From Candidatus Berkelbacteria bacterium (lineage in GTDB: Bacteria > Patescibacteriota > UBA1384 > JACPKC01): 64,000 nucleotides of DNA. Numbering within the stretch: the stretch's first letter is position 1; every line of letters begins with the position of its first letter. The notes below the pieces were generated by a model that saw only the letters and a program-made list of their open reading frames with translations, was not told where the DNA came from and searched no databases. The stretch spans positions 6,084 to 70,083 of the forward strand of contig JACQIO010000016.1 in the NCBI GenBank assembly GCA_016198415.1, read 5' to 3'. The position numbers and the translations under genes are program-made. Positions 558 to 58,377 of this stretch are shown one piece after another.

Positions 558-2008
558 CCATCCAGCTCCACAACACGCGGACCCGTCGTCTCGAGCCCTT
601 CCAGCCCCTTCAACCCAACGAGGCCGGCATCTACACCTGTGGGCCAACGGTCTACCAGTACACCCACCTGGGGAACTTTCGGACCTACGTGGTGTCTGAT
701 CTCCTCCGGCGCCTCTTGGAGTACCAGGGTTTCGCCGTCAAACACGTCATGAACATCACGGACGTTGGCCACCTGGTGGGGGATGGGGACGAGGGCGAGG
801 ATCGGTTGGAAGTGGGTGCCAAGCGAGAGGGCAAGACTGCCTGGGAGATTGCCAGCTACTACACCGATGCCTTCCTCCACGATCTTGCTCGCCTCAACCT
901 CCGTCAGCCCCACGTCCTGCCGCGGGCAACTCAGCACATCCCCGAGCAGATCGCCCTCATCGAGCAGCTGGAGACCAAGGGCTTTACGTACCGAACGGGC
1001 GACGGGATCTACTTTGAGACCAGCAAGTTGTCAGACTACGGATCCCTCCTTGGTCAGGACCGAGACCAGCTCTTGGCTGGGGCGCGGGTTGAGGTCAACC
1101 CAGAGAAACACCACCCCGCCGACTTTGCGTTGTGGAAGTTTTCGGAGGACAGAAGACAGACGACAGAGGACAGAGCCGATTCGTCCTCCGTCATCCGTCC
1201 TCCGTCATCCGAAAGAAGGCAGATGGAGTGGGACTCGCCCTGGGGCGTCGGCTTCCCGGGCTGGCACATCGAGTGTTCGGCCATGAGCGTCAAGTACCTC
1301 GGCCAGCCGTTCGATCTTCACATTGGTGGCGAAGACCTCGTTTTCCCGCACCACACGAACGAGAGTGCTCAGACAGAGGCGGCCACCGGCCAGCCCCTCG
1401 CCAACTACTGGCTCCATGGGGCGTTCATGAGCGTTGATGGCGCCAAGATGAGCAAGTCGCTCGGCAATACCTACACCGTCGAGGACGTGGTCAAGCGGGG
1501 CCACGATCCATTGGCGTTCCGCTACCTCACGCTCCAGACCCACTACCGCAAACCGCTCAACTTTACCTGGGAGGCGGTCCAGGCGGCCGATCAGGCGCTC
1601 GCCAACCTTCGGGCCCTCGTCCGCGAGCTTCCAGAAGAGGGGACCGAGCTCGATCCTGCTACCGAGGAGGAGTTTCGGACCCACATCGGCCATGATCTGG
1701 GCCTGCCGCAGGCGCTGGCGCTCTTCTGGGACGTGCTCAAATCAGACCGAGAAGCAGGGGAAAAGACCACAGCCGTTCAACACTGGGACCAGGTTTTTGG
1801 CTTGGGCTTGGCCGATCAACTCGGGAAGCTCGAAGAAATTCCGACCGAGGTGAGTGCCCTGGTGGCCAAGCGCGAGCAGGCGCGGGGAGCGGGGGAGTAC
1901 GGCCAGGCCGACGAGCTTCGATCCAAGCTGACTGACCTGGGCTACACCGTCGACGACACCCCCGACGGTCCCAAGGTCCATCGAGTCGAAAAGCCAACAG
2001 AACTGTAG
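404..2008 (+). CDS. cysS: Cysteine--tRNA ligase (class I aaRS). Maximal ORF given. Homology to CysRS begins near nt 557-560 ([10 protein letters not shown]...), so the true start is probably a non-ATG codon overlapping the Zn-ribbon ORF
   Basis: HIGH-type motif [14 protein letters not shown] motif ([10 protein letters not shown]), WHIECSAM zinc-site motif. About 22-aa low-complexity insertion before WDSPWG. No SD before ATG 404. Confidence 0.9.
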
Positions 2009-2014
2009 ACTCTT

Positions 2015-2775
2015 TCACCACCCCACCTACACACCGGAAGTGTAGGTTGGGTGGTGTTATAATGCGGGCATGGCAGTCCGGCACGAATCGATCATTACCG
2101 GCGAGGTCTATCACGTCTTTAATCGTGGCGTTGAGAAGCGAGATCTGTTTATTGACGATGTCGATCGTCAGCACTTTCTCGATGTCCTCAGCTTCTACCT
2201 AGACGAAGTTCAGGCAACCCGCTTCTCATTTCTCACCACAAAGCAGCGACAAAGAATGCTGCAGAAAATGCCCACGCATCCGCGCGTTGAGATCTTGGCC
2301 TACTGCCTGATGGGCAACCACTTCCACCTGATCATCCGCCAGTTGGGCGACGAGGGGATTCGGCGATTTCTCCACCGGGCGCTGAACAGCTACGCTCGAT
2401 ACTTCAACACCCGATACGAGCGAGTCGGTGCGCTCTTCCAGGGTCGATTTCGTGCTGTCCGGGTGACGAGTGATGCCCAGCTTCTTCACCTGATCCGTTA
2501 CCTTCATCTCAACCCATACGTGAGCCATCTTGTGGAGACGCTCGACTCGTACACGTGGAGCTCTCACCCCCTCTATGCTGCCCAACGAGAGACACGACTC
2601 GTCCGCATCACTCAAGGCATGAGTTTCTTTGACAATGACCCAGAGCGATACCGGAAGTTCCTTGAGGATTATCAGGAGTACGCACGTTCGTTGCATCTCC
2701 TCCGGGACATCGCCGAGCAAAGCCGCTGATTTCACACCACCACCCTTTCACTCCGGAAGTGTAGGTGGTGTGGTG
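2015..2775 (+). mobile_element. IS200/IS605-family-like minimal element: Y1 (HUH) transposase gene flanked by subterminal hairpins
   Basis: Left hairpin CACCACCCCACCTACAC-ACCGGAA-GTGTAGGTTGGGTGGTG (2015-2055), right hairpin region with the same CCGGAAGTGTAGGTGGTGTGGTG core (2733-2775), both start with TTTCAC(C). Extended -10 (TGtTATAAT 2054-2062) immediately before ATG 2070 suggests a leaderless transcript. Confidence 0.55.
2070..2729 (+). CDS. IS200-like / REP-associated tyrosine transposase (Y1 HUH transposase, COG1943/RAYT-like)
   Basis: 219 aa. N-terminal YHVFNRG, HUH motif LMGNHFHLII, catalytic-Tyr region SYARYFNTRYERVGALFQGRF typical of Transposase_17/RAYT proteins. Confidence 0.85.
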   Translation: MAVRHESIITGEVYHVFNRGVEKRDLFIDDVDRQHFLDVLSFYLDEVQATRFSFLTTKQRQRMLQKMPTHPRVEILAYCLMGNHFHLIIRQLGDEGIRRFLHRALNSYARYFNTRYERVGALFQGRFRAVRVTSDAQLLHLIRYLHLNPYVSHLVETLDSYTWSSHPLYAAQRETRLVRITQGMSFFDNDPERYRKFLEDYQEYARSLHLLRDIAEQSR

Positions 2776-2791
2776 AGGGGTTAGGGTGGGC

Positions 2792-2820
2792 TTGACAGAT
2801 GCCACATCCTGGTGTATCAT
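2792..2820 (+). promoter_or_regulatory. Near-consensus sigma70 promoter TTGACA-N17-TATCAT
   Basis: TTGACA 2792-2797, 17-nt spacer, TATCAT 2815-2820, directly after the IS200-like right end, pointing into an ORF-free region. Confidence 0.5.
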
Positions 2821-2826
2821 CTCGCT

Positions 2827-3526
2827 GTTCCTGGCGCTTCAATCACATGGTTCCTCTTCGCGCCGGGGACGTTCACAACAAAGATGGAGGCGGGCTGGGA
2901 TGCGCACCCCTAGCCACCACGCCTCCTCGTTCCGGCCCTTGTTGGTCGGACGAAAGCCTGGTGCGCACCCTGGGTCCGGTGAGCGTTTGACGCTCCAAGC
3001 CGTACCCAAGGTTCATGGCCTCGCCCTTGCGCCGGTTCGAACCCGGCTGCCACTCATTTGGTTTGTCGGGCGAGGCAAACCGGAGGCGGTGATCTGACCA
3101 GCGATCCGGGCTGGTTAGGGAGATCAAGATCATCGCTGATGCGGGAGCGTCGTGCCGAGGGCTGGGCCTCGGCACTGTCACTGGATTCCCGGAAGAACTG
3201 GGTCCAGGATGCTCCGGGACGGAGAGAGCTGCGCTGGTGGTTGACTCCCACCTAAGCCAACTCGGCTGCTCTCCTCCTATCCCACCCGTCACCCCCACTC
3301 GCGGGACGCGTGCCAGGCCTTCGGGTCTGGACCCACGAGCGGGGCTTGCAGGCCGCACTGCGTGGCCACCCACGAAGACCTCCACTTCCCCCACCGAAGC
3401 GCGCGATGGGGCCCCGGGATCACTCGGCGGAGGCACTCATGAGGAGTCGGCGGGGTGCGTTGCACCCACCCGGGGCACCACCCCGTCGACCTCCTCCCAC
3501 AAAAAGCGCCGTAGGGCGCACACACC
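2827..3526 (+). ncRNA. Candidate non-coding transcript or decayed gene remnant (no credible ORF on either strand)
   Basis: About 0.9 kb between tnpA and the next gene. Only short Arg/Pro/Gly-rich overlapping ORFs. Consensus promoter upstream, canonical T-arm-like hairpin GCCGGTTCGAACCCGGC at 3031-3047, GC hairpin near the 3' end. Confidence 0.2.
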
Positions 3527-3560
3527 GGGCCGGCTCATCGCGAGCCGGCCCTTCCTCATG
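3527..3560 (+). terminator. Terminator-like GC hairpin GGGCCGGCTC-ATCGC-GAGCCGGCCC followed by TTCCTCAT
   Basis: Perfect 10-bp stem seen directly. Weak U-tract, as usual in a GC-rich genome. Confidence 0.3.
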
Positions 3561-3570
3561 TCATCACCAA

Positions 3571-3599
3571 TTGACAACCGCCGCGCCTTCAGGTATGGT
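3571..3599 (+). promoter_or_regulatory. sigma70 promoter TTGACA-N17-TATGGT
   Basis: TTGACA 3571-3576, TATGGT 3594-3599. SD GAGGAG precedes ATG 3710. Confidence 0.5.
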
Positions 3600-3709
3600 G
3601 ACGCGTTCTTGCACCAGAACAATTCGGACAACGAAACGCTCCTTTTGGGGCGCGTTCTGCGTGCAGACAGATCACACGCGGGCGTGGCCCGCATGAGGAG
3701 AAAGTCAAA

Positions 3710-5278
3710 ATGTTCAAAGTTCTGTTCGTTCAAACCATCGGCCTCGTCATGACCCTCGGCCTCGCTGGGCTGGCGCTCGGGAGCCTCCGGCTCCTCTGGG
3801 CAGCGCACCGGGACAATGGGTCCTACTCGTCCCGAACGCCGTGTTGGCCGGAGCGCCGGACCTGGTGGCTGCGGGGTGCCAGTTGCATCGTGGCTGCCTG
3901 GAGTGCGTACGCACTGGGGAGGATCTTGGCGCCAGACACCTGGCTCTGGTTCTTCCTGGTCACGTACACGACGACCTGGCTGACGCTCTCTACGCACCTC
4001 AGCCGGACGATGTGGCGGACCAACTCCCGTCAGCCGCGGATCCATCGCCTCTCATGGGGTGTGGCGATCTTCGCACTGATGGGTGGCACCATGACCGTCC
4101 TCGCGACCACTTGGTCCCTGTTCATGGTGGCGGCAATCTTTGTTGCCCTGCCACGGATCTGGGAGTGGTGGTCCGAGTGGTTCCAGGATGTGCGGTACCG
4201 CCGGCACCGGCCGGTCGCCGCGCTCGGCATGGGGCTGGCGATCCTCGTCGGCCTGAGCTGGATCACAGTCATGAGCGGGCGCGTTGCCATCGAAGCCCTC
4301 TTGGGGACGAAGGTTATCGTGCGGGCCGGCGGAGTCGTTACGCCGCCGCCACCTCCGCCGCCGGTGGCGCTTCCCAAGTGGATCCTCGGCAAAGGGGTCT
4401 GGATCGTCAACCTTGACCACGCCGAGGGCGGGGACCTCGAGGCCATCGTGGCGAAGGCCAAGAAGTACCACGCCGACCACCTCCTGGTGAAGCTCTTTGA
4501 CTCAGAGTGGGATGAGGGGCCGTGGATCCCGTTTCACGGCGCCGACATCCGCCCGGTGGCCAAGGAGCTCATCGCGCTCGCCCACGCCGAGGGCATCAAG
4601 GTCTACCTCTGGGGGTACGTCTACGGCAAGCGGACCCAGTGGGAGATCGGGCTCGTCCGGGAGTGCCTCATGCTCAACCCCGACGGCTTTGTCTATGACG
4701 CCGAGGGGGAGTGCAAGAAGGAGGGCCGAACCGAGAACCTGGAGGAGATCTGCCGGTCGGTTACGGAATGGCGGGACAAGTACCGGCCGAACGCACTGCT
4801 CGGGTTCTCGTCGTTCGACGGGACGATCATGCACGCCGACGGAGGGTTCCCGTACGCGGTCTTCGACCGCTACTGCGAGGTCTTCATCCCCCAGTGTTAC
4901 TGGAAGGATGATGCCACCGGCACTCCAGCCGATCGTCTCAGCTGGGCGTCGGAGCAGTGGGTCGCCTCGGCGGCCAAGTACCGTGCGCGGGGGGCAGGCA
5001 AGTCGTTCGATCGAATCCTCCCGGCTGGCCACGCCTACGACCCCAGACTCAACAGTAACCTTCGGGAGATCCCGTATGAGGAGGTCGTGGACTTCCTTGA
5101 ACGGGCCGAAGGCTTCTGGGGGGTGTCGCTGTACACCTACGAGTTTATGGGGCCGGAGCAGTGGCAGGGCTTCCGGGACGGGCCCGGGTCGCTCCGGGAG
5201 AAGGCCGAGCGGTACGGCGAGGAGCTGCGCAAGGCGCGGGAGGCTAAGCGTAGCGGCAAGAAGGGAAAGGAGGGCTGA
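3710..5278 (+). CDS. Polytopic membrane protein with poly-Pro linker and C-terminal TIM-barrel glycoside-hydrolase-like domain (GHL/DUF4015-type guess), Lys-rich tail
   Basis: 522 aa. About 6 N-terminal hydrophobic helices, PPPPPPP linker, then WIVNLDHAEGGD...IKVYLWGYVYG...LNPDGFVYDAEGE. Good SD. Domain assignment by similarity only. Confidence 0.8.
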   Translation: MFKVLFVQTIGLVMTLGLAGLALGSLRLLWAAHRDNGSYSSRTPCWPERRTWWLRGASCIVAAWSAYALGRILAPDTWLWFFLVTYTTTWLTLSTHLSRTMWRTNSRQPRIHRLSWGVAIFALMGGTMTVLATTWSLFMVAAIFVALPRIWEWWSEWFQDVRYRRHRPVAALGMGLAILVGLSWITVMSGRVAIEALLGTKVIVRAGGVVTPPPPPPPVALPKWILGKGVWIVNLDHAEGGDLEAIVAKAKKYHADHLLVKLFDSEWDEGPWIPFHGADIRPVAKELIALAHAEGIKVYLWGYVYGKRTQWEIGLVRECLMLNPDGFVYDAEGECKKEGRTENLEEICRSVTEWRDKYRPNALLGFSSFDGTIMHADGGFPYAVFDRYCEVFIPQCYWKDDATGTPADRLSWASEQWVASAAKYRARGAGKSFDRILPAGHAYDPRLNSNLREIPYEEVVDFLERAEGFWGVSLYTYEFMGPEQWQGFRDGPGSLREKAERYGEELRKAREAKRSGKKGKEG

Positions 5279-5282
5279 GCAG

Positions 5283-5326
5283 AGGTCCGTGGGGAGCAAT
5301 CCCCCGGACCTCTTTCCTTTTTGGGC
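5283..5326 (+). terminator. Intrinsic terminator GAGGTCCGTGGGG-agcaat-CCCCCGGACCTC + TTTCCTTTTTGGG
   Basis: 12-bp GC stem followed by T-rich tract immediately after stop of 3710..5278. Confidence 0.65.
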
Positions 5327-5553
5327 TGCTTCTGGTCGTAACGACCTCGGCGCGTCTACAAATGACCAATAATCAAACTCCAATAACCAGACAAGTTCCA
5401 ATATCCAATGTTCAGTTTGGTTATTCGGACCTTCGGTTATTGTCTGATCATTGAGGCTTGGTCATTGGTCATTGCCTCGCGCACCCTGCTCCTATTGAAC
5501 CACCCCTGTTGGCAGCGTCGAATGGGTCTGCGGCCGGGTGAACATCAAGGCAT

Positions 5554-5582
5554 TGACAGGAGGAGAGGTACGTGCTAGACTC
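5554..5582 (+). promoter_or_regulatory. sigma70 promoter TTGACA-N17-TAGACT
   Basis: TTGACAGG 5554-5561 and TAGACT 5577-5582, about 250 nt upstream of ATG 5834 (long leader). Confidence 0.35.
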
Positions 5583-5833
5583 CCGAGTTCGCTGCTGGTA
5601 CAGTGCGTTCAGAGGGACGCACGTCCAGTTGCTTTCCACCAAGTAGAACGTCATTCCACTCTGGTCCGGCTAGGAGCTGGGAGAGTTGTCTGCGAGCCTT
5701 GCTCAACGACTTTGCCCCTCCTTCCCAGCTGTCCCCTGAGGATACTCGAGCTCGCTCCGCTTGCCGGAGAGGGTACGTGGCCTGGCTGGACCAGAGGGAA
5801 TGACACTTAAGGAGGGGATCGTGGGGCACGACT

Positions 5834-11619: not shown

Positions 11620-12519
11620 ATGCAAAAGATTCTTTCTCTGCTCGGAGTGGCGGGCCTCTTGATGGTAGCAGCTGGACCATCAACTGCTGCTGCCCAAGAT
11701 GCCTTTGCCGACCCGATCTTTGCTGGTTTCAACCTCAACTGGGTCAGCAATGCTCAGTTCCAGGGCCAGGGACAAGGTCAGCAAACGATTGTTCCCATTG
11801 TCAATAACAACGGGACCAACAACGCTGGGTCTGCCTCGGGTGCCGGGAACGTGACCGTTCCGGTCATCCAGGTGACGCCGGCGCCAACTGCCGGGACGCC
11901 TGTTTCAGGCGGTTCTGGCACTGGTACGTGCAATGCCAACGCCAGTTGCGCAACCGTTCCGGTCACGATGGACCCGGCCAGGCCGGCGATCATTGTGAAC
12001 GGTGGTGACGCGAATGCGGCGGCTGCGGCCTCGGCGGCCACAGCCGGCAACGGTGGTGGTGGCGAGAACGGTGACGGCGGTTCGTCCGCTGCGTCGAGCT
12101 CGTCTGCTGCCAACGCTGGTGGCAATGAGAACGGCGCCGGTGGTGCCAATGCGGCTGCGGCTGCATCGGCTGCTTCAACTGGTGGCGGTAAGGGTGGCAA
12201 CGGTGGCGGGAGCGCCGCTGCCTCAAGTGCTGCCAATGCCGGTGGCAAGGACGGGGCGAGTGCGGCGGCTGCGGCCGCGGCTGGCCCCAATGCCAACGCG
12301 GAAGCCAGGGCCGGTGACGGCAAGGCGGAAGCTAAGGCTGAGTCCAAGAGCGAACCAACCAAGGTTGCTCTGGCCAAGGGCGCGCTCCCTAAGGAGCTCC
12401 CCAAGGCTGGTGCCGAGGCTGGTGCGCTGGCCGTTGGTCTGACCACGCTGACAGGCGCTGGTTCAGCCCTCCTGGCTCGCAAGCGTAAGCTTGACCTGGC
12501 TGACCTCATCGTCGGCTAA
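11620..12519 (+). CDS. Secreted Ala/Gly/Asn-rich surface protein with N-terminal QGQGQG-TIVPIVNN module and C-terminal LPxAG-type sortase-like sorting signal
   Basis: Signal peptide MQKILSLLGVAGLLMVAAGPSTAAA. NAQFQGQGQGQQTIVPIVNNNGTNNAGSASGAGNVTVPVIQ. C-terminus LPKAG + hydrophobic stretch + RKRK tail. Confidence 0.75.
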   Translation: MQKILSLLGVAGLLMVAAGPSTAAAQDAFADPIFAGFNLNWVSNAQFQGQGQGQQTIVPIVNNNGTNNAGSASGAGNVTVPVIQVTPAPTAGTPVSGGSGTGTCNANASCATVPVTMDPARPAIIVNGGDANAAAAASAATAGNGGGGENGDGGSSAASSSSAANAGGNENGAGGANAAAAASAASTGGGKGGNGGGSAAASSAANAGGKDGASAAAAAAAGPNANAEARAGDGKAEAKAESKSEPTKVALAKGALPKELPKAGAEAGALAVGLTTLTGAGSALLARKRKLDLADLIVG

Positions 12520-12556
12520 GGACGCTCTGGTTGGCTGGTACCAGCTGACTGGAGGC

Positions 12557-12590
12557 AAAGAGACCCCGCCCGGGGTCTCTTTGTGTTGGT
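12557..12590 (+). terminator. Intrinsic terminator AAAGAGACCCCG-CC-CGGGGTCTCTTT + GTGTTGG
   Basis: Perfect palindromic GC stem flanked by A and T tracts after stop of 11620..12519. Could act bidirectionally. Confidence 0.55.
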
Positions 12591-12745
12591 ATCACCTTAG
12601 TCCTCCCCTTGCCAACCCCTCCTCCTGACACGCTCATTTCAACACGTCACTTCCTCAAAGACACTCTTCGTTCCTGACGGCCGAAGTTTCTTTGGGAGCG
12701 TGATGCGTCGAAATGGGGATGGTATCCGCCTTTGGCGGATGGATT

Positions 12746-12800
12746 GGTATCTGTGTGATCTGCGAGTCGCCAGGGAGGCGACCTATGTATCTGTGGTGTG
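12746..12800 (-). repeat. Box-hairpin-box intergenic repeat, copy A (minus orientation)
   Basis: RC reads CTCACACCACAGATACATAGG - GTCGCC..GGCGAC hairpin - CAGATCACACAGATACC. Homologous to copies at 19516-19575 and 43484-43543. Confidence 0.5.
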
Positions 12801-12812
12801 AGCTACCCCTGC

Positions 12813-12841
12813 TTGACAGAGCACCGAGAACGCGGTACCCT
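12813..12841 (+). promoter_or_regulatory. Promoter candidate CTTGACAGAG-N17-TACCCT (weak -10)
   Basis: Shares the CTTGACAG -35 context with promoters at 2792 and 13597. Points into the ORF-poor region. Confidence 0.25.
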
Positions 12842-13064
12842 CCGTCCAGCTGAACGCAGCTTTACCTTTGTGAGAGCAACCCACCGGACCTGATGTTGTC
12901 GGCACGGCCGGTAACCAGTGAAGGGGACGTCAGGTCCCGGTGGGTTCACACGAATTGACGGCTGGCTGTCGCTGGGCTCGGGCCGTGAGGCCGTAGGCCC
13001 CGGGGCTTACACCGAGCACGCCGTGGTCTCAGGAGCCACGGATGGCGCCGAGCTAGCCGTCTCA

Positions 13065-13106
13065 ACAACTGGATCCCGCCGGATTAACCCCCCCGACCGG
13101 CGGGAT
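13065..13106. repeat. Perfect 14-bp inverted repeat hairpin CTGGATCCCGCCGG-attaacccccccga-CCGGCGGGATCCAG
   Basis: Seen directly. Lies inside the ORF-poor region 12830-13500. Confidence 0.5.
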
Positions 13107-13511
13107 CCAGCACCAGAGCCCTGCCCTGGTCCACCTTCCCCCAACCAGGGTGGGGTTCCCAGAGCGCCGGACCCGTGCCGGGTCTGGGCGTTGGTGCGAC
13201 CTCTCGCCCGAGCGAGAGGTATCCGGTGAGGAGAACAGAGGTGGGACGGACTCCGTGGCAGAGTTCCTCCGCTCCCAAAGAGCGTGGGCCAACCACCACG
13301 GTGACACCTCGGCACGGCGGAGCCGCGCAGTGCCAGTTGGGGGATTCACATCGCTGACGAACGCCGAGCCCTGGCTCCGGATCGCGTCGGCCTTGCCCCT
13401 AGCCGTCCAGTTTTTCTTGAGCCTGAACGTCCCACCCCTCCCGGGACGTTCACCGCTCGACCCCCTGAAGAGTCCGCCCACGTGCGGACTCTTCCTCTGT
13501 CATGCGGGCAA

Positions 13512-13586
13512 GGGTGAACGTGAATGGTGAAAGGAGAAGGCAGCGTGACGCTTTGCGCTGTACCTTTCACTTTTCACGTTTCACCC
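13512..13586. repeat. GTGAAAG/C heptad-repeat hairpin element, copy 1
   Basis: Forward arm GGGTGAACGTGAATGGTGAAAGGAGAAGG, 20-nt palindromic spacer, reverse arm TACCTTTCACTTTTCACGTTTCACCC. Confidence 0.6.
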
Positions 13587-13596
13587 AAGGTACCCC

Positions 13597-13626
13597 TTGA
13601 CAGGTGGTCGGCATCTGCAGTATCTT
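13597..13626 (+). promoter_or_regulatory. sigma70 promoter TTGACA-N18-TATCTT (homologous to the promoter at 2792)
   Basis: CTTGACAGGTG...ATCTGCAGTATCTT aligns with CTTGACAGATG...ATCCTGGTGTATCAT at 2791-2820. Confidence 0.4.
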
Positions 13627-13632
13627 GCCCCA

Positions 13633-14184
13633 GCAACCTAACAAGTTGACAGAAATCCCTGGGCGAGTGTCTGGTGGGCTGAGGCTCGCCAACATGACGC
13701 AGCGAGGCACCTCGCCTGCGCCCGTTCGAACCTGCTGCAGAAGAATGGAGAGGCGAGTAGACGTTTATCAGCCTCGCTCAGGGATTCACATAACAAGTTC
13801 ATCTGGCTAGCCCCAGGGCCCTGTGGGCATCGGAGACGTCCCTGACCTCGGTCAGGACCGGTGCGCGCATCCTCCTTGAGAAGCGGAGGGGTGAAAGGCT
13901 CGGCTTCCAACAAAGCCCGTCGTGTGATCTCCGGTTCAGCCGCTTCGGCTTGGTGATCACCTTCGGACTTGGCCGATCTTGCCAGATGAACCCTCTTGAA
14001 CGTTCGGTTGGTGGGCGAGGAGTCGTACGCGACCTCTCCCACCGGCCCAACGCCAGCGGCCGGGCCGCGAGCTCCTACCTGGTCCACCTTCCCTAACCAG
14101 CGGAGTCGCGCGGTGCGGCTGCCTCAACGCAGACGGACGACGAGGGCCCCTGTGCCCCCAGAGCATCTCGCGTCCATCTGCCCC
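13633..14184 (+). ncRNA. Candidate non-coding transcript between a promoter and a strong terminator (no credible ORF)
   Basis: About 580 nt. Contains GGAGGGGTGAAAGGCTCGGCTTCCA and GAATCCCGGCC, which loosely resemble RNase P CR-I/CR-V, but the match is too weak to call. Confidence 0.2.
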
Positions 14185-14220
14185 GAATCCCGGCCCTCAA
14201 AGCCGGGATTCACCTTTTCC
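14185..14220 (+). terminator. Intrinsic terminator GAATCCCGGC-cctcaaa-GCCGGGATTC + ACCTTTTCC
   Basis: Perfect 10-bp stem then T-tract, followed by a half-arm of the TTTCAC repeat (CGTTTCACCC). Confidence 0.6.
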
Positions 14221-14243
14221 GTTTCACCCGCTACAGTACGCTT

Positions 14244-15248
14244 ATGTCCACCCTTGATGATCGGAAATCGAAACTCTACGAGCTCCTCAAGCTTGAGGAG
14301 AAAGACGCCCGGATTCGTGCAATCGAGGCGCTGATGGCCGCGCCCAATTTCTGGGCCGATCAAACCCAGGCCACGCAGCTCAGCACTGAACTGGCCCGGC
14401 TCAAACAGACTATTGCCGAGTGGGAAATAGCCGAGACCGATGATCAGGTTCGGGCGCTGGAACTGAAGTCGCTCCTCTCTGGTAAGTACGACGCCAGCAA
14501 CGCCATCGTCAGCTTCCACGCCGGCGCCGGGGGGACCGAGGCCATGGACTGGGCCGGAATGCTCCGGCGGATGATTGAGCGTTGGGCCGAAGGTCGGGGT
14601 TTGCCGGTGACGGAAATCGAGCAGTCGCTCGGTGAGGAGGCCGGCCTCAAGTCCGCCACCCTCAAGATTGCCGGCGAGCACGCCTACGGCTATCTCAAAG
14701 GGGAGGCCGGCGTTCACCGCCTGGTCCGGATCTCGCCGTTCGACGCCGATAAAGCCCGCCATACTTCTTTTGCGCTCATTGAGGTGGTGCCCGAGCTCGC
14801 AGATCTGGGCGATGTGGTGATCGACGAGAAAGACCTCCGGACCGATCTCTTCCGCTCCGGCGGCAAGGGTGGTCAGAACGTCAACAAAGTGGAAACGGCC
14901 GTTCGGATCACGCACCTCCCCACCGGCCTGGTTGCCACCAGCCAGAACGAGCGGTCTCAGGCTCAGAATCGAGCGCTCGCAATGGGCGTCCTGGTTGCCA
15001 AGCTCCAGGCCTTGGCGCACGAGCAGCGGCTCGAGCAGATTGGCGAGCTCAAGGGCGAGCACCGGAAGGTGGAGTGGGGGAGTCAGATTCGCTCCTACGT
15101 CCTCCAGCCCTACCAACTGGTCAAGGATCTCAGGACCGGGCATGAGGAGAGTGATGCCGAGGCTGTCCTTGAGGGCAGGAAGCTGCAGGGGTTTATGGAT
15201 GCCTACCTTGCGTGGCAGGCCACACAAGGGGTGAAACGTGAAAGGTAA
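14244..15248 (+). CDS. prfB: Peptide chain release factor 2
   Basis: SPF motif (RISPFDADKARHTSF) and GGQ motif (GGKGGQNVNKVETAVRITH). Single uninterrupted ORF with no CTT-TGA-C frameshift site. Last 6 codons plus stop lie inside the GTGAAAG repeat. Confidence 0.9.
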   Translation: MSTLDDRKSKLYELLKLEEKDARIRAIEALMAAPNFWADQTQATQLSTELARLKQTIAEWEIAETDDQVRALELKSLLSGKYDASNAIVSFHAGAGGTEAMDWAGMLRRMIERWAEGRGLPVTEIEQSLGEEAGLKSATLKIAGEHAYGYLKGEAGVHRLVRISPFDADKARHTSFALIEVVPELADLGDVVIDEKDLRTDLFRSGGKGGQNVNKVETAVRITHLPTGLVATSQNERSQAQNRALAMGVLVAKLQALAHEQRLEQIGELKGEHRKVEWGSQIRSYVLQPYQLVKDLRTGHEESDAEAVLEGRKLQGFMDAYLAWQATQGVKRER

Positions 15249-15303
15249 AAGGTGAAAGGTGCACGGAGACAGCCCGTTTCACGATTCACCTTTCACGTTT
15301 CAC
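15228..15303. repeat. GTGAAAG/C heptad-repeat hairpin element, copy 2 (overlaps prfB 3' end)
   Basis: GGGGTGAAACGTGAAAGGTAAAAGGTGAAAGGTG - cacggagacagcccg - TTTCACGATTCACCTTTCACGTTTCAC. Confidence 0.6.
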
Positions 15304-15371
15304 TCGTCTAGAGTTCTCGAGGCCTCTCGGGTATGCTGGCGCTGAGCATCGGTGACCAGAAAGGATGACGC

Positions 15372-15674: not shown

Positions 15675-15677
15675 GTT

Positions 15678-16104
15678 GGTGAAAGGTGAAACGTGAAAGG
15701 TGAAACGACCACGATCAACCTCTCCCGGCCTCATTACCGTCTCGATGCTTGGAAGGAATCACTCAAGCTGGCCAAACTGATCTACGAGCTCAGTCAACGC
15801 TTCCCCGACTCTGAACGGTATGGGTTAGTCAGTCAGATGCGTCGGGCGGCAGTCTCGGTATTGAGTAACATCGCGGAGGGCGCAGCGCGGAATAGCAGAA
15901 AGGAATTTGCCCAGTTTCTCTCAATTGCTCAGGGGTCACTCAGTGAGCTTGAAGCCCAGGTGATCATTTCACAGGAGCTTGGCTATATTGCAGATTCAGC
16001 AGAGGTGCTTGAGCTCCTCGATCGGGTATCTCGTCTTGTCGGTGGATTGCAGAGGAGTTTGCGATGACCCTGGACCTTTCACGTTTCACATTTCACCTTT
16101 CACC
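15678..16104 (+). mobile_element. GTGAAAG-repeat stem whose loop carries a four-helix-bundle protein gene (rRNA-IVS-like cargo element)
   Basis: Forward arm GGTGAAAGGTGAAACGTGAAAGGTGAAACG (15678-15707) and reverse arm CCTTTCACGTTTCACATTTCACCTTTCACC (16075-16104) flank the ORF. Same arms as the cargo-less hairpin copies. Confidence 0.5.
15693..16067 (+). CDS. Four-helix-bundle protein (23S rRNA intervening-sequence protein family, TIGR02436-like)
   Basis: LAKLIYELSQRFPDSERYGLVSQMRRAAVSVLSNIAEGAARNSRKEFAQFLSIAQGSLSELEAQ matches the family consensus. GTG start lies inside the repeat arm. Confidence 0.8.
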   Translation: MKGETTTINLSRPHYRLDAWKESLKLAKLIYELSQRFPDSERYGLVSQMRRAAVSVLSNIAEGAARNSRKEFAQFLSIAQGSLSELEAQVIISQELGYIADSAEVLELLDRVSRLVGGLQRSLR

Positions 16105-19506: not shown

Positions 19507-19515
19507 CTCGCTCGG

Positions 19516-19575
19516 CTTACACCACAGATACACAGGTCGCCTCGCGGCGACAGGCAGATCTCACAGATATCACGA
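19516..19575 (+). repeat. Box-hairpin-box intergenic repeat, copy B (immediately upstream of the tRNA operon)
   Basis: CTTACACCACAGATACACAGG - GTCGCCTCGCGGCGAC - AGGCAGATCTCACAGATATCACG. Confidence 0.5.
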
Positions 19576-19641: not shown

Positions 19642-19717
19642 CGGCGCGTAGCGCAGCCAGGGAGCGCACTACGTTGGGACGTGGAGGACGTGGGTTCAAA
19701 TCCCATCGCGCCGGCCA
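19642..19717 (+). tRNA. tRNA-Pro (anticodon GGG), CCA encoded. Hand-fold gives a 6-nt anticodon loop
   Basis: Acceptor CGGCGCG/CGCGCCG, D-arm GCGC-AGCCAGGGA-GCGC, anticodon arm CTACG-TTGGGA-CGTGG, T-arm GTGGG-TTCAAAT-CCCAT, discriminator G, CCA. Confidence 0.75.
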
Positions 19718-29916: not shown

Positions 29917-30999
29917 CTAGAGGTACTGCCGGAGCCCTTCATTGGTGAGGAGCTCGACGACCTTCTTGACCTCTTGCGATCGTTCTTTTGGAGTGACCAG
30001 GAGGGCGTCGGGGGTGTCAACAATCACCAGCCCGGAGACGCCAATCGTCGCGATCAGCTTCTCAGGAGGACCGTACACGAGCGTATTCTGTGTATCAATC
30101 CCCCGCCAGTGTGCCTTGACGAGATTGCCGTGCTCGTCGGCTTGCTCAGCGAGCTGCTCGGAGAGCATATGCCAATCTCCCAGATCAGCCCAGCCAAAGT
30201 CGCCGCGGACGGTCCGGACCTCGCTTGAGTCCATCTTCTCAATCACCGCGTAGTCAATCGATTTCGCTTCCATCCTGGCGAACGCAGCGTGCAGTGCGTC
30301 TTCGTTCTTCTTCTCGAGTGCGTCGATGATCGCTGGCAACTGGCGACCGATGGATGGTGCAAACCGTTCGTAGGCGTCCATAAAGCGTTGTGGCGTCCAC
30401 AGGAAGTAGCCACCGTTCCAGAGGTAGTTGCCCTCAGCGAGAAACTGCTTGGCGGTCTTGGCGTCTGGTTTCTCGCGCTGGCCTTCGAAGGCGAAGACGT
30501 GGACTCCGCCACGCGTTTCGAGTTCCTCGCCGACCTTGAGGTAGCCGAGGTTTGTGTTTGGGAACGTTGGCGGCAGGCCAATGTTGACCATCACGCCGAG
30601 CTCACGGACTAGCGCCTCGCCGACCGAGAACGTTGCCCGATACATCGCCGGATTCTTGATGTGGTGGTCAGCCGGCATGAGGATCATCGGCTCGTCAGCG
30701 CCGACCCGTGACATCCAGGCGGCGACGAACGCCATGGCCGGGCCGGTATCACGCCGTTCCGGCTCGATGATGTAGTGGTCCTTGGGGACCTTCGGTAGGA
30801 GGCGGTGGACGACTGGCGCAAACGGGCCGATCGTCGAGATGTACGTGTTCGCTGGGGTCGCGAGTCCGTCGAGCCGCTTGACCGTTTCCTCGAGCATGGT
30901 GAGCTCAGTGACGAGCTGGGCAAACTGCTTTGGCTGCGTGAACCGGCTCCGTGGCCAGAGTCGCGTCCCCGATCCCCCGCACATGATGACGTAGTTCAT
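29917..30999 (-). CDS. Mannose-1-phosphate guanylyltransferase (GDP-mannose pyrophosphorylase) family
   Basis: MNYVIMCGGSGTRLWPRSR...KQF nucleotidyltransferase signature. 360 aa. Confidence 0.85.
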   Translation of the reverse strand: MNYVIMCGGSGTRLWPRSRFTQPKQFAQLVTELTMLEETVKRLDGLATPANTYISTIGPFAPVVHRLLPKVPKDHYIIEPERRDTGPAMAFVAAWMSRVGADEPMILMPADHHIKNPAMYRATFSVGEALVRELGVMVNIGLPPTFPNTNLGYLKVGEELETRGGVHVFAFEGQREKPDAKTAKQFLAEGNYLWNGGYFLWTPQRFMDAYERFAPSIGRQLPAIIDALEKKNEDALHAAFARMEAKSIDYAVIEKMDSSEVRTVRGDFGWADLGDWHMLSEQLAEQADEHGNLVKAHWRGIDTQNTLVYGPPEKLIATIGVSGLVIVDTPDALLVTPKERSQEVKKVVELLTNEGLRQYL

Positions 31000-31613
31000 G
31001 CTCCTCCCTGTGTTCCGGGTACGCTACCAGAAGCCGAGTGCCGTCGCAAACCAAGGTGGTGCTCGATGATCTGGGCGACCTCCTCGACCGCCTCATCGAG
31101 CTTCCCTGCTCGGTTGATCACGGTCGCTTCACAGACGTCTTGCTGCTCCATTTCACGCTGAGCAATCGCGAGCCGCCCCGCGATGTCTTGCTCCGTCATC
31201 ATTGGTCGGGTCCGACGCAGCCGATCCGGCATGTCGCCGAGCGACTCGTAGGCAATGAAGATGGCCAGCGTGCCGGGAAAAGTACGCTTGTAGCTGACCA
31301 CGCCGCGGACGTCGATCGCTGAACGTGGCACTGGGTACTGGCCCCGATCCAAGATCTCCCGGAGGTGGCGGATTTGGGTGCCGTAGCGGTGGTGGTCGAA
31401 CTCCTCCCACTCTAGGAACGCCCCAGCCTCAATGAGGCGCGTGAACGCCTCTTCACTGACAAAGTGATACTTATCCTCGCCTGGCGTCCGTTGCGGGCGG
31501 GTTGTCGTCGTCTTGTAGAACTCAAGGTTCGGAAACATCGGGACGATGCGATCAATGATGACGTTCTTCCCTACTCCAGAGGGTCCAACGACGAGAACTG
31601 GTACGGGTTTCAT
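30996..31613 (-). CDS. gmk: Guanylate kinase
   Basis: P-loop GPSGVGK, TTRPQRTPGEDKYHFV guanylate-binding motif. Confidence 0.85.
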   Translation of the reverse strand: MKPVPVLVVGPSGVGKNVIIDRIVPMFPNLEFYKTTTTRPQRTPGEDKYHFVSEEAFTRLIEAGAFLEWEEFDHHRYGTQIRHLREILDRGQYPVPRSAIDVRGVVSYKRTFPGTLAIFIAYESLGDMPDRLRRTRPMMTEQDIAGRLAIAQREMEQQDVCEATVINRAGKLDEAVEEVAQIIEHHLGLRRHSASGSVPGTQGGA

Positions 31614-36546: not shown

Positions 36547-37578
36547 TTACCGTGGCTGAATCGATTCGAGGATTCGCTGGAAGAGGCCTCGGCTCCCGGC
36601 GCTCTCGCGAAGCTCAAGGGCTCGCGCCGCTTGGTCGCCTGGCAGCGTCATGAAGCCTTTGAGTTCGCCCTCAGTCGTCATGAACGCTCTGAGTCCTCCC
36701 GCTTCCTTGATGAGCTCACACCGTTGGCCGTTGCAGGTATTGTTCGCCTCATCAAAGGTGGTGATGGGGGTGATGGTGAACGAGAGTCGCTCCACAAAGT
36801 AGTACCGACCATCCTCGGCCAGGGTTGGGTGGCCATAAGCCTTGGGATAAGCAAGCTTGATCCCGTGCTCGCCGAGTGACACGGTCTGCCACGTCTCGTA
36901 ACTGGGAGCATCTGGAAAGCCCAAGCTGGCGAGGATGGTGTCCCTGGAATTTTGGAGTGCTCCACCGACACAGAACCGAAACGTCAGTACGACGCTCACG
37001 TTCCCGTTCGGCCGTGGCACCAAGTAGGCTTCCCGGCGGCACCCGTCCTCGTCCGGGAGTTGGACGGTGGCGTAGAGTCGCTCGCCAATCCGGACCACCT
37101 CAAACGTATCCATCCGTGCGCCGCGTTCCTCAAAGGCTCGGTAGGCCTGTGAGGCCAGGCGGAGGTAGTCGATCAGCTGGAAGGCGAAGGCGTCGTTCCC
37201 AAGAGTGAAGACAACTCGGCTGCTCGTAGTGTCAAAGCGAACCGGCATAGCGGGCGGATACCGAAGGGCGACGTCCGAGGACGTTTCCCAGTATGTTTTC
37301 CAATCCTGGGAGGGCGGTGCGACGTCCCGCGTCTGCACGTCCTGCTCGGCAAGTTTCTTGCCGGGGTTCTCGGCGGACTGCCACTGCCCTTCGCCCTGGG
37401 CTGCGGTATCGAGCTGGACGCCCAGCTGATCGGCTGGAACCAAGCCACGCAAGAGTCCAGTGGATCGGTTCGGATGAGTGACCTGCCAGAGCGCGAGGGC
37501 AGCGACGATGAGCACGCTCGCCGCCACCAGCAGACGTGCCGATGAACCCCGCTGCATGAGGTACGAGCGTGACTTCAT
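36547..37578 (-). CDS. Membrane-anchored hypothetical protein
   Basis: N-terminal signal-anchor helix. 343 aa. No recognisable motif. Confidence 0.6.
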   Translation of the reverse strand: MKSRSYLMQRGSSARLLVAASVLIVAALALWQVTHPNRSTGLLRGLVPADQLGVQLDTAAQGEGQWQSAENPGKKLAEQDVQTRDVAPPSQDWKTYWETSSDVALRYPPAMPVRFDTTSSRVVFTLGNDAFAFQLIDYLRLASQAYRAFEERGARMDTFEVVRIGERLYATVQLPDEDGCRREAYLVPRPNGNVSVVLTFRFCVGGALQNSRDTILASLGFPDAPSYETWQTVSLGEHGIKLAYPKAYGHPTLAEDGRYYFVERLSFTITPITTFDEANNTCNGQRCELIKEAGGLRAFMTTEGELKGFMTLPGDQAARALELRESAGSRGLFQRILESIQPR

Positions 37579-39865: not shown

Positions 39866-40113
39866 CGGTCCTCCAGCTTGGCGAACCGTGGTCCCTGGTA
39901 GCCGTACTCCGGTTTGTCAACGTGCTCGACGAACATCTCGTACGGCCGGACGCAGAGGGGACGATCACCGTACTCGGCCTGGTAGACCACCATCGACTCG
40001 CCGGTTTCAGTGTGCCGGGCGACGCCCAAAACAGTGTACTCTTTTCCCTTGAAATGCCGATATCGACCAGCTGGAAGCGTCTTCACCTGGTCGATCGACG
40101 TGGCTTCGGTCAT
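39862..40113 (-). CDS. DUF1653-family small protein
   Basis: YRHFKGKEYTVLGVARHTETGESMVVYQAEYGD matches the DUF1653 pattern. Confidence 0.7.
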   Translation of the reverse strand: MTEATSIDQVKTLPAGRYRHFKGKEYTVLGVARHTETGESMVVYQAEYGDRPLCVRPYEMFVEHVDKPEYGYQGPRFAKLEDR

Positions 40114-40670
40114 TCCTCCTCCTTGAACGTACCTTCTACGACGTGGTCCTCGGTGATGCCGTCGAGGCCCATGATCTCAGTTTCCTCGGTGATGACAACG
40201 CGGGTGAGGCCCCGAAGATCCTCGCTCGAGTTATAGGTGAGCCGGTATGTGTCATCGTCTGTGCGCTCAAGGCGACCGGTCGAGAGGACGCGCGAACCGT
40301 CAGTCAGCCACCCTTCGTAGAAGCGACCAGTTGCTGGACTTGGCAGCGAGGCAGTCACGGTATGATCAAAGCGTCCGTTGACGTACGTCCGAGTTGCACT
40401 CCCCGATCCTGTCCGTCCGGCCACGGGTGTGAGCGTAATGGTAGCGGCGTGGGTCTCCTGCCCGTTGGTCCGGAGATTGATGGTGGTCCGGTTCGTACTG
40501 GTACCGGCAGACGTAACAGCGGACGATGTGGTCGAGGTGCCCTCCGCTAACGGCACCGGGGTTGTATCTCTGTCACGCTGCGTTGGCAGGAGTTTCTGGT
40601 CCCAGGCGATCCAGCCGAGGAGCAGAATAGCAAGCACGATCCAGAGGTATACCCAGGGAGAACTTCTCAT
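40110..40670 (-). CDS. Membrane-anchored Thr/Ser-rich hypothetical protein
   Basis: N-terminal TM. 4-bp overlap with the downstream gene (operon with the ABC genes). Confidence 0.6.
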   Translation of the reverse strand: MRSSPWVYLWIVLAILLLGWIAWDQKLLPTQRDRDTTPVPLAEGTSTTSSAVTSAGTSTNRTTINLRTNGQETHAATITLTPVAGRTGSGSATRTYVNGRFDHTVTASLPSPATGRFYEGWLTDGSRVLSTGRLERTDDDTYRLTYNSSEDLRGLTRVVITEETEIMGLDGITEDHVVEGTFKEEE

Positions 40671-43463: not shown

Positions 43464-43483
43464 GGCTCCAGCTCCGATCCCAG

Positions 43484-43543
43484 CATCTGTGTGATCTGTG
43501 TGCCCCGACAAATCTGCCGGGGCCTGTGCATCTGTGGTGTGAG
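43484..43543 (-). repeat. Box-hairpin-box intergenic repeat, copy C (upstream of PEBP gene)
   Basis: RC reads CTCACACCACAGATGCACAGG - CCCCGGCAGATTTGTCGGGG - CACACAGATCACACAGATGCTG. Confidence 0.5.
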
Positions 43544-43544
43544 A

Positions 43545-45815: not shown

Positions 45816-45980
45816 TCACAGAGGCAGTCGTCACCCAGGCCCCGGTATCACGCCGGGGTCTCATCATGTCCGCACATCCCCTACAGACGTGTCATTCATG
45901 AAATTTCGGGGAACACGTCTGATGGAACACTGGTGGGACACCGACAAGCCCGCTCCCGCTTCTCGAAGTGTTGAAGCCCC

Positions 45981-46022
45981 CCCATCCACCCTTATACTAC
46001 CATGCTATATAGCATGGTAGTA
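45981..46022. repeat. Perfect AT-rich 40-bp palindrome between convergent genes (probable bidirectional terminator or binding site)
   Basis: CCCTTATACTACCATGCTATA|TAGCATGGTAGTATAAGGG seen directly. Stands out in a GC-rich background. Confidence 0.5.
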
Positions 46023-46037
46023 TAAGGGTCTATACGC

Positions 46038-49089: not shown

Positions 49090-49143
49090 ACGTCTCCTTT
49101 GCTCCGTTCGATCCTGCTCCAGTATTCGGAGGCGGTCAAGGGC

Positions 49144-49200
49144 GGTGAAAGGTGAAACGTGAATCGTGAAAGGACAGACCTTTCGCGTTTCACCTGTCTG
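49144..49200. repeat. GTGAAAG/C heptad-repeat hairpin element, copy 4 (between trxA and nrdJ)
   Basis: GGTGAAAGGTGAAACGTGAATCGTGAAAGG - acagac - CTTTCGCGTTTCACC. Confidence 0.6.
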
Positions 49201-51890: not shown

Positions 51891-51900
51891 GACCCTCCTC

Positions 51901-58348: not shown

Positions 58349-58377
58349 TTGCACGTTCGTTGAAGGTATGACCACGA

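Follow-up and report, generated by a model that had tools for sequence, protein, structure and literature searches.

An ORF-free block upstream of prfB in a Berkelbacteria genome as a candidate site of lineage-specific structured RNA genes

The large structured bacterial RNAs OLE, GOLLD, ROOL, raiA, and HEARO, whose functions are poorly known or unknown, are families defined by wide conservation and covariation. Much smaller are 6C RNA of Actinobacteria and Scr3202 of Streptomyces, RNAs of ~60–100 nt with adjacent GC-rich hairpins and C-rich loops, while the REP/REPIN clusters (BIMEs) that accompany RAYT genes are built from units of 20–100 nt present in many copies. CPR bacteria have small, gene-dense genomes whose non-coding RNAs are, to our knowledge, almost entirely uncharacterized; a literature search for structured RNAs of CPR or Berkelbacteria found nothing. 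We describe here a block of ~1.7 kb (12520–14243) in the high-GC genome of a member of the Berkelbacteria (CPR), located within a window of 64 kb, the whole stretch of DNA that was analyzed.

The block is ORF-free and non-coding. It is bounded upstream by a gene for a secreted/anchored protein (11620–12519) and downstream by prfB, whose ATG follows directly at 14244 on the + strand. In composition it is a mosaic of a terminator, a conserved hairpin, repeat copies, and two unique GC-rich segments, U1 and U2, with dispersed hairpin repeats making up about a quarter of its length. Our favored reading, to which we assign a probability of roughly 0.4, is that U1 and U2 are lineage-specific structured RNA genes. 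The features on which the discussion draws, including a third unit outside the block (block A), are as follows.

2792–3551 (+): block A, structured and ORF-free, the third such unit and located outside 12520–14243; body of 66.4% GC
from 2792 (+): block A promoter, TTGACA-N17-TATCAT, 11/12 matches
3527–3551 (+): block A terminal hairpin
12556–12583 (+): intrinsic terminator of the upstream gene 11620–12519; 13-bp perfect stem, then UGUGUUGG; conserved in L081, with compensatory changes
12636–12716 (+): long imperfect hairpin; z = −4.2 (+), −4.7 (−); kept with compensatory changes in one relative (L081)
12748–12803 (+): box-hairpin-box repeat; ATCTGTG.GATCTG, variable hairpin, ATCTGTGGTGT.AG; nhmmer E = 1e-5
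12813–12841 (+): U1 promoter-like site read from the sequence, TTGACA-N17-TACCCT; perfect −35, weak −10
~12845–13494 (+): U1, ~650 nt, unique, 66.6% GC, ORF-free; predicted chain of long hairpins
13069–13110 (+): perfect 14-bp hairpin; C-rich loop AUUAACCCCCCCGA including C7; z = −7.8
13116–13158 (+): 15-bp hairpin, three G-U pairs on the + strand; loop CCACCUUCCCCCA; 24-nt core also in U2
13424–13452 (+): 10-bp hairpin; loop ACCCCUCCC; z = −4.4
13467–13494 (+): U1 terminal hairpin; 11-bp stem, then CCUCUGUCAU
13512–13586 (+): heptamer-array hairpin, (GTGAAAN)3 / (NTTTCAC)3; member of a dispersed family
13597–13626 (+): U2 promoter, TTGACA-N18-TATCTT, 10/12 matches
~13633–14211 (+): U2, ~580 nt, unique, 62.8% GC, ORF-free; multi-branch predicted folds
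14056–14122 (+): long hairpin; tip CCUGGUCCACCUUCCCUAACCAG, a repeat of the U1 hairpin tip; z = −3.9
14185–14211 (+): U2 terminal hairpin; 10-bp GC-rich stem, 7-nt loop, −19 kcal/mol, z = −4.8; then ACCUUUUCC
14207–14237 (+): half (right-arm) heptamer-array copy, 86% identical to 13566–13586

The lack of a convincing ORF, asserted in an initial sequence-only reading of the locus, is borne out by stop counts, GC phase, and six-frame protein searches. Only overlapping GC-rich ORFs of ≤149 aa are listed for the block; its frames contain 11–18 stops each, with ~14.5 expected from base composition and no frame stop-depleted, and its GC phase differences are 0.02–0.22 versus 0.3–0.39 in the flanking genes. 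Faint GC3 phasing (0.74 vs 0.57) is seen at 13800–14096, and a weak GC3 > GC2 difference (0.13–0.17) occurs both there and at 13150–13530; stops in the block are at the random level. Pfam detected no domain in six frames of the block or of block A, nor in the long ORFs, and a concatenated six-frame query of the block against 5.8 billion proteins returned no match at E ≤ 10; the lack of even a self-hit suggests that the source record called no CDS here. A frameshifted gene, raised at the outset as an outcome that would overturn the RNA interpretation, was sought through protein searches and none was found, leaving one weak, relic-like match of 9 residues. This was the only result of tblastx and tblastn comparisons with the slot genes of relatives, and it aligns LGYQESPSC of L081 with LGFQQSPSC at 13899–13925 (7/9 identical). 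The string GLGRSC recurs downstream in the same frame, which is that of the weak GC3 phasing. When the L081 repeat was modeled as a mini-HMM, the U2 match came only third among those in the window, and its score was negative and nonsignificant.

In the long hairpin at 12636–12716, the arms read ACACGUCAC/GUGAUGCGU in the window and CACCGUCC/GGACGGUG in L081, such that the sequence differs and the pairing is kept. The box-hairpin-box element, originally placed at 12746–12800, is indeed a repeat, being one of three family copies (the others at 19515–19572 on the − strand and 43483–43544 on the + strand) whose inner stem covaries in the alignment (GTCGCC/GGCGAC vs GCCCCG/CGGGGC), but it is not unusually stable (z = +0.7). 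The GTGAAA hairpin at 13512–13586 is real, with z = −6.8. Dispersed hairpins of three or more families are present in the window, together with a RAYT-like gene. In relatives, the orthologous spacer retains the heptamer-array design with a different unit sequence; a design that stays constant while its unit changes between species is an unexplained feature of these genomes.

Signals expected of independent units frame U2 more clearly than U1. The promoter at 13597–13626 was recognized correctly from the start: it is the sole site of its quality reported by a promoter scan within 12000–14800, where 0.2 would be expected, and the six sites with ≥10/12 matches in positions 1–60000 are all intergenic and all face a downstream unit. 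Its proposed base-for-base agreement with 2792–2820 does cover CTTGACAG.TG plus CATC.TG..GTATC.T but needs a 1-nt gap, the spacers being 17 and 18 nt. The promoter claimed for U1 has a perfect −35 TTGACA, yet its TACCCT matches the −10 consensus at only 3/6 positions and the scan did not report it. At the 3′ end of U2, the hairpin at 14185–14211 is as strong as described, but the label of textbook terminator goes too far, as ACCUUUUCC has only four U and the terminator scan was silent. That scan called neither this hairpin nor the one at 13467–13494, both of which carry short or interrupted U tracts; terminal hairpin z values range from −4.8 to −6.1. The terminal hairpins of U1 and block A are each followed by the tail CTTCCTC(A)TGTCAT.

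Both segments fold far more stably than their shuffled counterparts, with z = −8.65 (+) and −3.33 (−) for U1 and z = −7.15 (+) and −2.58 (−) for U2, compared with a background of −0.8 ± 1.7 for 600-nt windows. The minimum free energy of the + strand is 13–16 kcal/mol below that of the − strand, although the − strand is richer in G. Counts of G-U pairs in the minimum free energy structures did not differ between strands, and neither G-U asymmetry nor UUCG/GNRA tetraloop enrichment was informative as a strand test. The inverted repeat of 14 bp noted earlier at 13065–13106 is perfect and real, with its arms correctly placed at 13069–13082/13097–13110. C-rich apical loops recur in U1 (C7 and CCCCUCCC). 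Other spacers of this genome also fold very well (ig5279, z = −5.3/−5.9; ig45816, z = −5.6/−4.4), and a very negative z is thus partly a property of the genome. U1 and block A (~66.5% GC) exceed both the window (61.5%) and other spacers (55–60%) in GC content, which argues against unconstrained decay.

Block A lies just downstream of a RAYT-like Y1 transposase (Y1_Tnp) gene at 2070–2729, itself flanked by paired REP-like hairpins at 2016–2056 and 2735–2775. U1 and U2 have in common a 24-nt hairpin tip with a CCACCUUCCC loop (E = 1.3e-4), and block A and U2 a 25-nt motif whose pairing partners differ. Beyond the promoter and these two motifs, MAFFT, blastn, and nhmmer found no alignment among the three units, and a paralogous origin was set aside, the units being not detectably related to one another. 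A T-arm-like hairpin in block A (GCCGG-UUCGAAC-CCGGC) was likewise considered as a tRNA-like element and rejected, having no acceptor partner.

Comparative genomics places the block in a variable slot. It is absent from 10 of 10 relatives, whose prfB genes are 68–76% identical; their slot upstream of prfB is empty or is occupied by HicAB, a Y1 transposase, or orphan ORFs, and a prfB scan of genome contigs added only relatives of ≤54% identity. The relative L081 matches the window in three respects, namely terminator, long hairpin, and position of the promoter; beyond these, a real gene takes the place of U1, and the L081 slot encodes a 250-aa Cys-repeat secreted protein, for which no family was detectable, plus a small ORF.

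At the gathering threshold, no Rfam 15 family matched the block in a scan of the whole window. Relaxed scans at E ≤ 10 on 12300–14500 (2.2 kb) and at E ≤ 5 on 1900–3800 gave only chance-level miRNA/sRNA matches; the best near-miss for the block was Scr3202 (29.7 bits vs a gathering threshold of 52, E = 0.11), and the 6C model had no match in the block. The sequence-only reading had named a negative Rfam scan as evidence against its RNA loci, and the absence of a family goes against it on this point. Blastn of the block against phage and plasmid collections found nothing, and 15-mer and heptamer scans of viral sequences gave chance or coding matches only; a metagenome pattern scan gave one chance match within a coding gene, judged from its sequence to be an inositol monophosphatase gene. 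In nhmmer searches of the window plus ~1.5 Mb of CPR loci, A, U1, and U2 recovered only themselves, and no hairpins with CCACCUUCC-type loops were found in those loci. The unique parts of U1 and U2 have no repeat elsewhere in the 64 kb, and no long direct repeat involves the block. U1 and U2 therefore have no support from covariation, since none of these searches yielded a homologue of either, even in part. With respect to IS200/IS605 elements and TnpB/omega-RNA, the L086 Y1 transposase matches only 2070–2711 and not the block, no OrfB domain occurs in six frames of block A or U1/U2, and Rfam gave no HEARO- or omega-type match. No reverse transcriptase of a diversity-generating retroelement was present among the 42 window ORFs scanned. 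Integron attC sites and oriC (DnaA boxes) were rejected, with core sites missing and no global skew switch, as was a group II intron domain V, with core sites missing and no Rfam intron match.

In the favored reading, the block would have been inserted, in this lineage specifically, into the variable slot that immediately precedes prfB, and U1 and U2 would most likely be two tandem genes, transcribed independently from the + strand into highly structured non-coding RNAs, each starting at a sigma-70-type promoter and ending in a strong terminal hairpin. A third unit of the same style would be block A. The proposal of candidate non-coding RNA loci stands as far as promoter, ORF-free strongly folding body, terminal hairpin, and + strand orientation are concerned, for U2 and less clearly for U1, and is weakened by the lack of an Rfam family or homologue, by the quarter of the block taken up by repeats, and by the variability of the slot, which is home to selfish modules in other genomes. 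The heptamer-array and box-hairpin-box repeats between and around the units are probably terminator and promoter boundary elements, and since a direct copy of the heptamer right arm lies at either end of U2, these repeats may have mediated its insertion. At their hairpin tips the RNAs would present C-rich loops, CCACCUUCCC in U1 as well as U2 and, in U1, also C7 and CCCCUCCC. These loops are complementary to ribosome-binding sites of the GGAGG/GGAGGGG type found in the window, so the RNAs would act in trans on purine-rich sites, through pairing of the kind thought to operate in 6C-type or Scr3202-type small RNAs. A bolder extension, which we regard as unlikely, is that U1, U2, and A are functional large RNAs (~600–750 nt) of an undescribed, fast-evolving kind, that they move between spacers as promoter-RNA-terminator cassettes by recombination at heptamer-array hairpins, and that their anti-Shine-Dalgarno-like CCACCUUCCC loops sequester ribosome-binding sites or a factor that binds the 16S rRNA 3′ end.

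The main rival, a real possibility if short of even odds, is that the block is a nonfunctional relic in which accessory genes with their own promoters and terminators, like those of L081, decayed past recognition while dispersed hairpin repeats accumulated; its strong folding would then result incidentally from palindromic repeats inserted into a genome that is high in GC and rich in hairpins. The accessory or selfish genes that relatives hold in this slot fit such a history, above all the L081 gene standing at the place of U1 after a common terminator, hairpin, and promoter position, and so do the dispersed hairpin families with their RAYT-like gene and the other spacers that reach z ~ −5. 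The 7/9 match of LGFQQSPSC and LGYQESPSC, with GLGRSC in the same frame, hints at an old coding origin of part of U2. Yet stops are at random expectation in every frame and the mini-HMM gives a negative score; the L081 gene, which is intact, shows the folding of ordinary coding sequence (z = −0.8); U1 and A are richer in GC than coding DNA, whereas decay should drift toward AT; and the unique parts of U1 and U2 are without repeat matches elsewhere in the window. In genomes as compact as those of CPR bacteria, 1.7 kb without a function would be expected to disappear quickly, which also counts against a relic.

Small proteins below the ORF length cutoffs, such as type I toxins or leaderless peptides, are improbable products of the block: short ORFs do occur, for example at 12713–12853 (46 aa, hydrophobic N-terminus), and GAAATGGGGATGG around its ATG is conserved in L081, but this string coincides with the 3′ arm of the hairpin kept in L081, no ATG lies 6–7 nt past the three promoters, no ORF has a well-placed GGAGG, and 5.8 billion proteins gave no match. 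Even less credence is due to U2 as a long cis-acting 5′ leader or attenuator of prfB with 14185–14211 as a regulated terminator. U2 does lie directly upstream of the gene in the same orientation, its end 33 nt short of the ATG; the half heptamer-array copy at 14207–14237, however, supplies TTCACC-N17-TACAGT, whose −10 stands 6 nt before the ATG and which, judging from sequence and spacing, is likely the promoter of a near-leaderless prfB. Other −10 boxes placed 6–7 nt ahead of an ATG are frequent in the window, and L081 prfB has the same near-leaderless layout. Relatives, moreover, have only 60–90 nt or unrelated genes upstream of prfB, and Rfam found no riboswitch, T-box, or leader family in 12300–14500. 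A divergent housekeeping RNA (RNase P RNA, tmRNA, 6S, or SRP RNA) missed by standard models in CPR is effectively refuted. Its only point is GGGGUGAAAGG, a string singled out initially that resembles part of what we take to be the J11/12 region of type A RNase P RNA. None of these families matched at E ≤ 10 in the 2.2-kb search, and regular expressions for P4/CR-I (GGAAAGUCC) and CR-V (ACAGAA..GG.UUA) found nothing in the block; the faint RNase P resemblance reported earlier dissolves, and the decision then not to call rnpB was right. ARAGORN found no tmRNA, only three tRNAs at 19.6–19.9 kb, and no tmRNA family appeared in the Rfam output. The absence of the block from all ten relatives also indicates that it is not an essential RNA gene.

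If the three blocks are transcribed and functional, ~2 kb of a single 64-kb window would be orphan large RNAs invisible to existing models, a starting point toward a CPR-specific RNA biology. Should they be relics, the locus instead records a hotspot upstream of prfB with turnover of toxin-antitoxin genes, a transposase, and hairpin repeats.

Among described systems, OLE, GOLLD, ROOL, raiA, and HEARO resemble these units in their length (550–750 nt), ORF-free and strongly structured bodies, and association with variable or mobile regions, block A adjoining a Y1 transposase-like gene; their Rfam models nevertheless match none of the blocks, and the conservation and covariation that define those families are absent here. 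REP/REPIN clusters are similar in their hairpin-rich spacers, a RAYT-like gene between paired hairpins, and several dispersed hairpin families, but most of U1 and U2 is unique and occurs once in the 64 kb, and REP elements are not framed by promoter and terminator. The cyanobacterial STRR heptamer repeats offer a parallel restricted to the GTGAAAN arrays, since they too consist of 7-nt units in tandem, placed in spacers across the genome, with the difference that the units here form inverted pairs and long hairpins at gene boundaries. The block also has likenesses to 6C RNA and Scr3202, with which the adjacent hairpins at 13069–13110 and 13116–13158, the C-rich loops at 13424–13452 and 14056–14122, and a high-GC host with GGAGG-type sites agree; here, in contrast, the hairpins are embedded in units of ~600 nt, in an unrelated phylum and in the sequence of one genome.

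The gene-free 1.7 kb upstream of prfB (12520-14243) may hold two lineage-specific structured RNA genes, a reading to which we assign a probability of about 0.4. The block is a mosaic of the following elements, in which U1 and U2 denote its unique GC-rich segments:

12556-12583: terminator of the upstream gene
12636-12716: long hairpin, also in the relative L081 with other arm sequences and the pairing kept
12748-12803: box-hairpin-box element, one of three copies of a repeat
12813-12841: promoter-like site heading U1
~12845-13494: U1, 66.6% GC, 11-bp hairpin at its end
13512-13586: heptamer-array hairpin, member of a dispersed family
13597-13626: promoter, TTGACA-N18-TATCTT
~13633-14211: U2, 62.8% GC, 10-bp hairpin at its end
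14207-14229: half copy of the heptamer array (right arm; 86% identity to 13566-13586)

The sequence-only reading, which had proposed candidate ncRNA loci here, described the block largely correctly. The GTGAAA hairpin at 13512-13586 is present, and a promoter scan recovers the site at 13597-13626; its likeness to the promoter at 2792, described as base for base, does extend beyond the hexamers but only once a 1-nt gap is inserted. The first promoter combines a perfect -35 with a poor -10 (TACCCT), and the scan does not recover it. The perfect 14-bp inverted repeat is real but lies at 13069-13110, 4 nt from its original placement, and the supposed textbook terminator is a genuine hairpin (14185-14211) with a tail of only four U, on which a terminator scan made no call. 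The right-arm copies at 13566-13586 and 14207-14229 mean that U2 is bracketed by direct copies.

Folding is part of the evidence for structured RNAs.

Table. Folding energy against shuffled sequences (z); negative values indicate better folding
U1: + strand -8.65; - strand -3.33
U2: + strand -7.15; - strand -2.58
Block A (2792-3551, outside the block): + strand -4.6 to -6.9; - strand -4.6
Intact gene in the L081 slot: + strand -0.8
600-nt windows over 64 kb, both strands: mean -0.8, SD 1.7, minimum -5.2

The + strand energies of U1 and U2 lie 13-16 kcal/mol below those of the - strand, though the latter has more G. Against RNA genes, spacers elsewhere in this genome attain z values near -5 on both strands, and neither G-U pair counts nor tetraloop counts tell the strands apart. 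U1 and block A exceed coding DNA and other spacers in GC content. No overall alignment of U1 with U2 is possible, but a 24-nt hairpin tip, CCUGGUCCACCUUCCC..AACCAG (E = 1.3e-4), is common to both, and two further U1 hairpins carry C-rich loops. Since ribosome-binding sites in the window are of the GGAGG/GGAGGGG type, we infer that these C-rich loops could pair with them. All six promoter sites with at least 10/12 matches in positions 1-60000 are intergenic and correctly oriented; one stands at the head of block A and another at that of U2.

Block A resembles U1 and U2 in layout: an 11/12 promoter heads a body free of ORFs, and after the terminal hairpin comes CTTCCTCATGTCAT, a tail also found 3′ of the U1 hairpin. 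Upstream of block A is a RAYT-like Y1_Tnp gene (2070-2729) that stands between two REP-like hairpins (41 nt; 2016-2056 and 2735-2775, 83% identity), and this region is an insertion relative to the cysS-to-secreted-protein arrangement of relatives. A perfect TATAAT box precedes the ATG of the Y1_Tnp gene by 7 nt, and a homologue of the gene (44% identity) sits directly 5′ of prfB in L086. Among the spacers elsewhere in the window, three that fold far better than shuffled sequence matched no Rfam family at gathering thresholds: 58001-58600, 5′ of ftsA (z = -5.2, - strand only), 5279-5833 (z about -5.3 to -5.9, both strands), and 45816-46037 (z = -5.6/-4.4).

The intrinsic signals of the block are strong, but the block is an orphan element. 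No homologue of U1, U2, or block A was found in a prfB contig scan, in phage, plasmid, viral, and metagenome scans, among proteins, or in nhmmer and loop searches of ~1.5 Mb of CPR loci. Candidate ncRNA loci are a plausible but unproven reading. The Rfam scan suggested as a check returned nothing at the gathering thresholds of Rfam 15, and at E ≤ 10 it gave chance-level matches only (top, Scr3202, 29.7 bits where the threshold is 52), with RNase P, tmRNA, 6S, SRP, intron, ribozyme, and riboswitch all absent. ARAGORN found no tmRNA, and the block contains no RNase P signature strings; declining to call rnpB was correct, and a divergent housekeeping RNA is scarcely credible. Small proteins are improbable. 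As first noted, the block lacks a convincing ORF, offering only overlapping GC-rich ones of ≤149 aa; stops per frame number 11-18 (about 14.5 expected from base composition), and GC phase differences are 0.02-0.22 versus 0.3-0.39 in neighbouring genes. A six-frame Pfam search was empty, and a concatenated six-frame query against 5.8 billion proteins gave no match at E ≤ 10, not even to itself; apparently, therefore, no CDS is annotated at the block in the source record. It is very unlikely that U2 is a prfB leader; the half copy at 14207-14229 provides TTCACC-N17-TACAGT six nt ahead of the prfB ATG, and such near-leaderless layouts are frequent in the window.

The main rival is a decayed accessory gene with accumulated hairpin repeats. 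The window (61.5% GC) is a chromosomal segment of a Candidatus Berkelbacteria (CPR/Patescibacteria) MAG, and its RF2 protein (prfB, 14244-15248) is 100% identical to MBI4022861.1. Gene order is kept in ten relatives with prfB identities of 68-76%: topA, recR, cysS, several orphan secreted proteins, prfB, ybaB, pth, rplA, tmk, rplJ, rplL, tRNAs, tgt, and T4SS-like genes. The slot from the last secreted protein to prfB varies and is a hotspot, with selfish genes in other genomes. It spans ~60-90 nt in L087, L089, and L310; L085 and L309 carry a HicAB module there, L086 has a Y1 transposase, and L082 has small ORFs. In L081 the slot encodes a 250-aa secreted protein with Cys repeats and also contains a 55-aa ORF, and in the window it is filled by the 1.7-kb ORF-free block. 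The window and L081 share the pre-promoter elements, after which L081 has a real gene at the place of U1. One frame of the block holds a 7/9 peptide match (LGFQQSPSC versus LGYQESPSC) and a second GLGRSC, and the same frame shows weak GC3 phasing in 13800-14096. However, a mini-HMM of the L081 repeat did not single out this match, and the L081 protein belongs to no detectable family. Orphan status, the hotspot slot, the L081 gene, and the weak peptide match keep such a relic a serious alternative, only slightly less probable than RNA genes.

Several observations accompany these readings. The long hairpin at 12636-12716 (L081 8575-8700) comes just after the terminator that closes the gene for the anchored secreted protein; both genomes keep pairing through compensatory arm changes, and the L081 copy has an insert of ~80 nt in its loop. 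In the window and every relative fetched, prfB is one uninterrupted ORF without the programmed +1 frameshift site that is usual in many bacteria. Many genes lack a Shine-Dalgarno sequence and instead carry a -10-like box (TATAAT, TACAGT, TATACT, TAGAGT, TAGACT, or TATAGT) whose distance to the ATG is 6-7 nt (e.g., 2070, 14244, 30996-31613(-), 33596-36517(-), 36547-37578(-), 40110-40670(-), and 46038-47129(-)), which suggests that leaderless mRNAs are widespread; the remaining genes have GGAGG-type sites.

The block carries copies of two dispersed hairpin repeats. The box-hairpin-box element occurs three times, at 12748-12803(+), 19515-19572(-), and 43483-43544(+), with conserved boxes ATCTGTG.GATCTG and ATCTGTGGTGT.AG and a covarying inner stem; one copy lies ~70 nt 5′ of a tRNA cluster and another just 5′ of the U1 -35 box. 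The tRNA at 19642-19717 is normal in Rfam (52 bits) and has no definite identity in ARAGORN (odd anticodon "(gg)"); by eye its loop looks like UUGGGAC, which would make it tRNA-Pro(GGG). Heptamer-array hairpins, tandem 7-nt units (GTGAAAN)n paired with (NTTTCAC)n, are located at gene boundaries:

Window: 13512-13586, 14207-14229, 15229-15305, 15677-15706 with 16076-16104, 49143-49200, 51898-51970
Relatives, same design built from other units: L081 10982-11085; L085 9172-9252; L086 8044-8128

Their right arms occupy the expected -35 position of the downstream gene, and the orthologous prfB-ybaB spacer of relatives keeps the design while its unit differs (TTCAATT, AGACGAT, or GGTAAGG). Between ybaB and pth, adjacent in relatives, is inserted a gene for a 23S rRNA intervening-sequence protein (15693-16067; PF05635, E = 6e-36) that also matches bAvd weakly; the window ORFs that were scanned include no reverse transcriptase. 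On either side of the gene lie heptamer arrays of four units each, in inverted orientation. These arrays are predicted to be able to pair across the whole gene, an arrangement that would resemble the processing stem of an rRNA intervening sequence.
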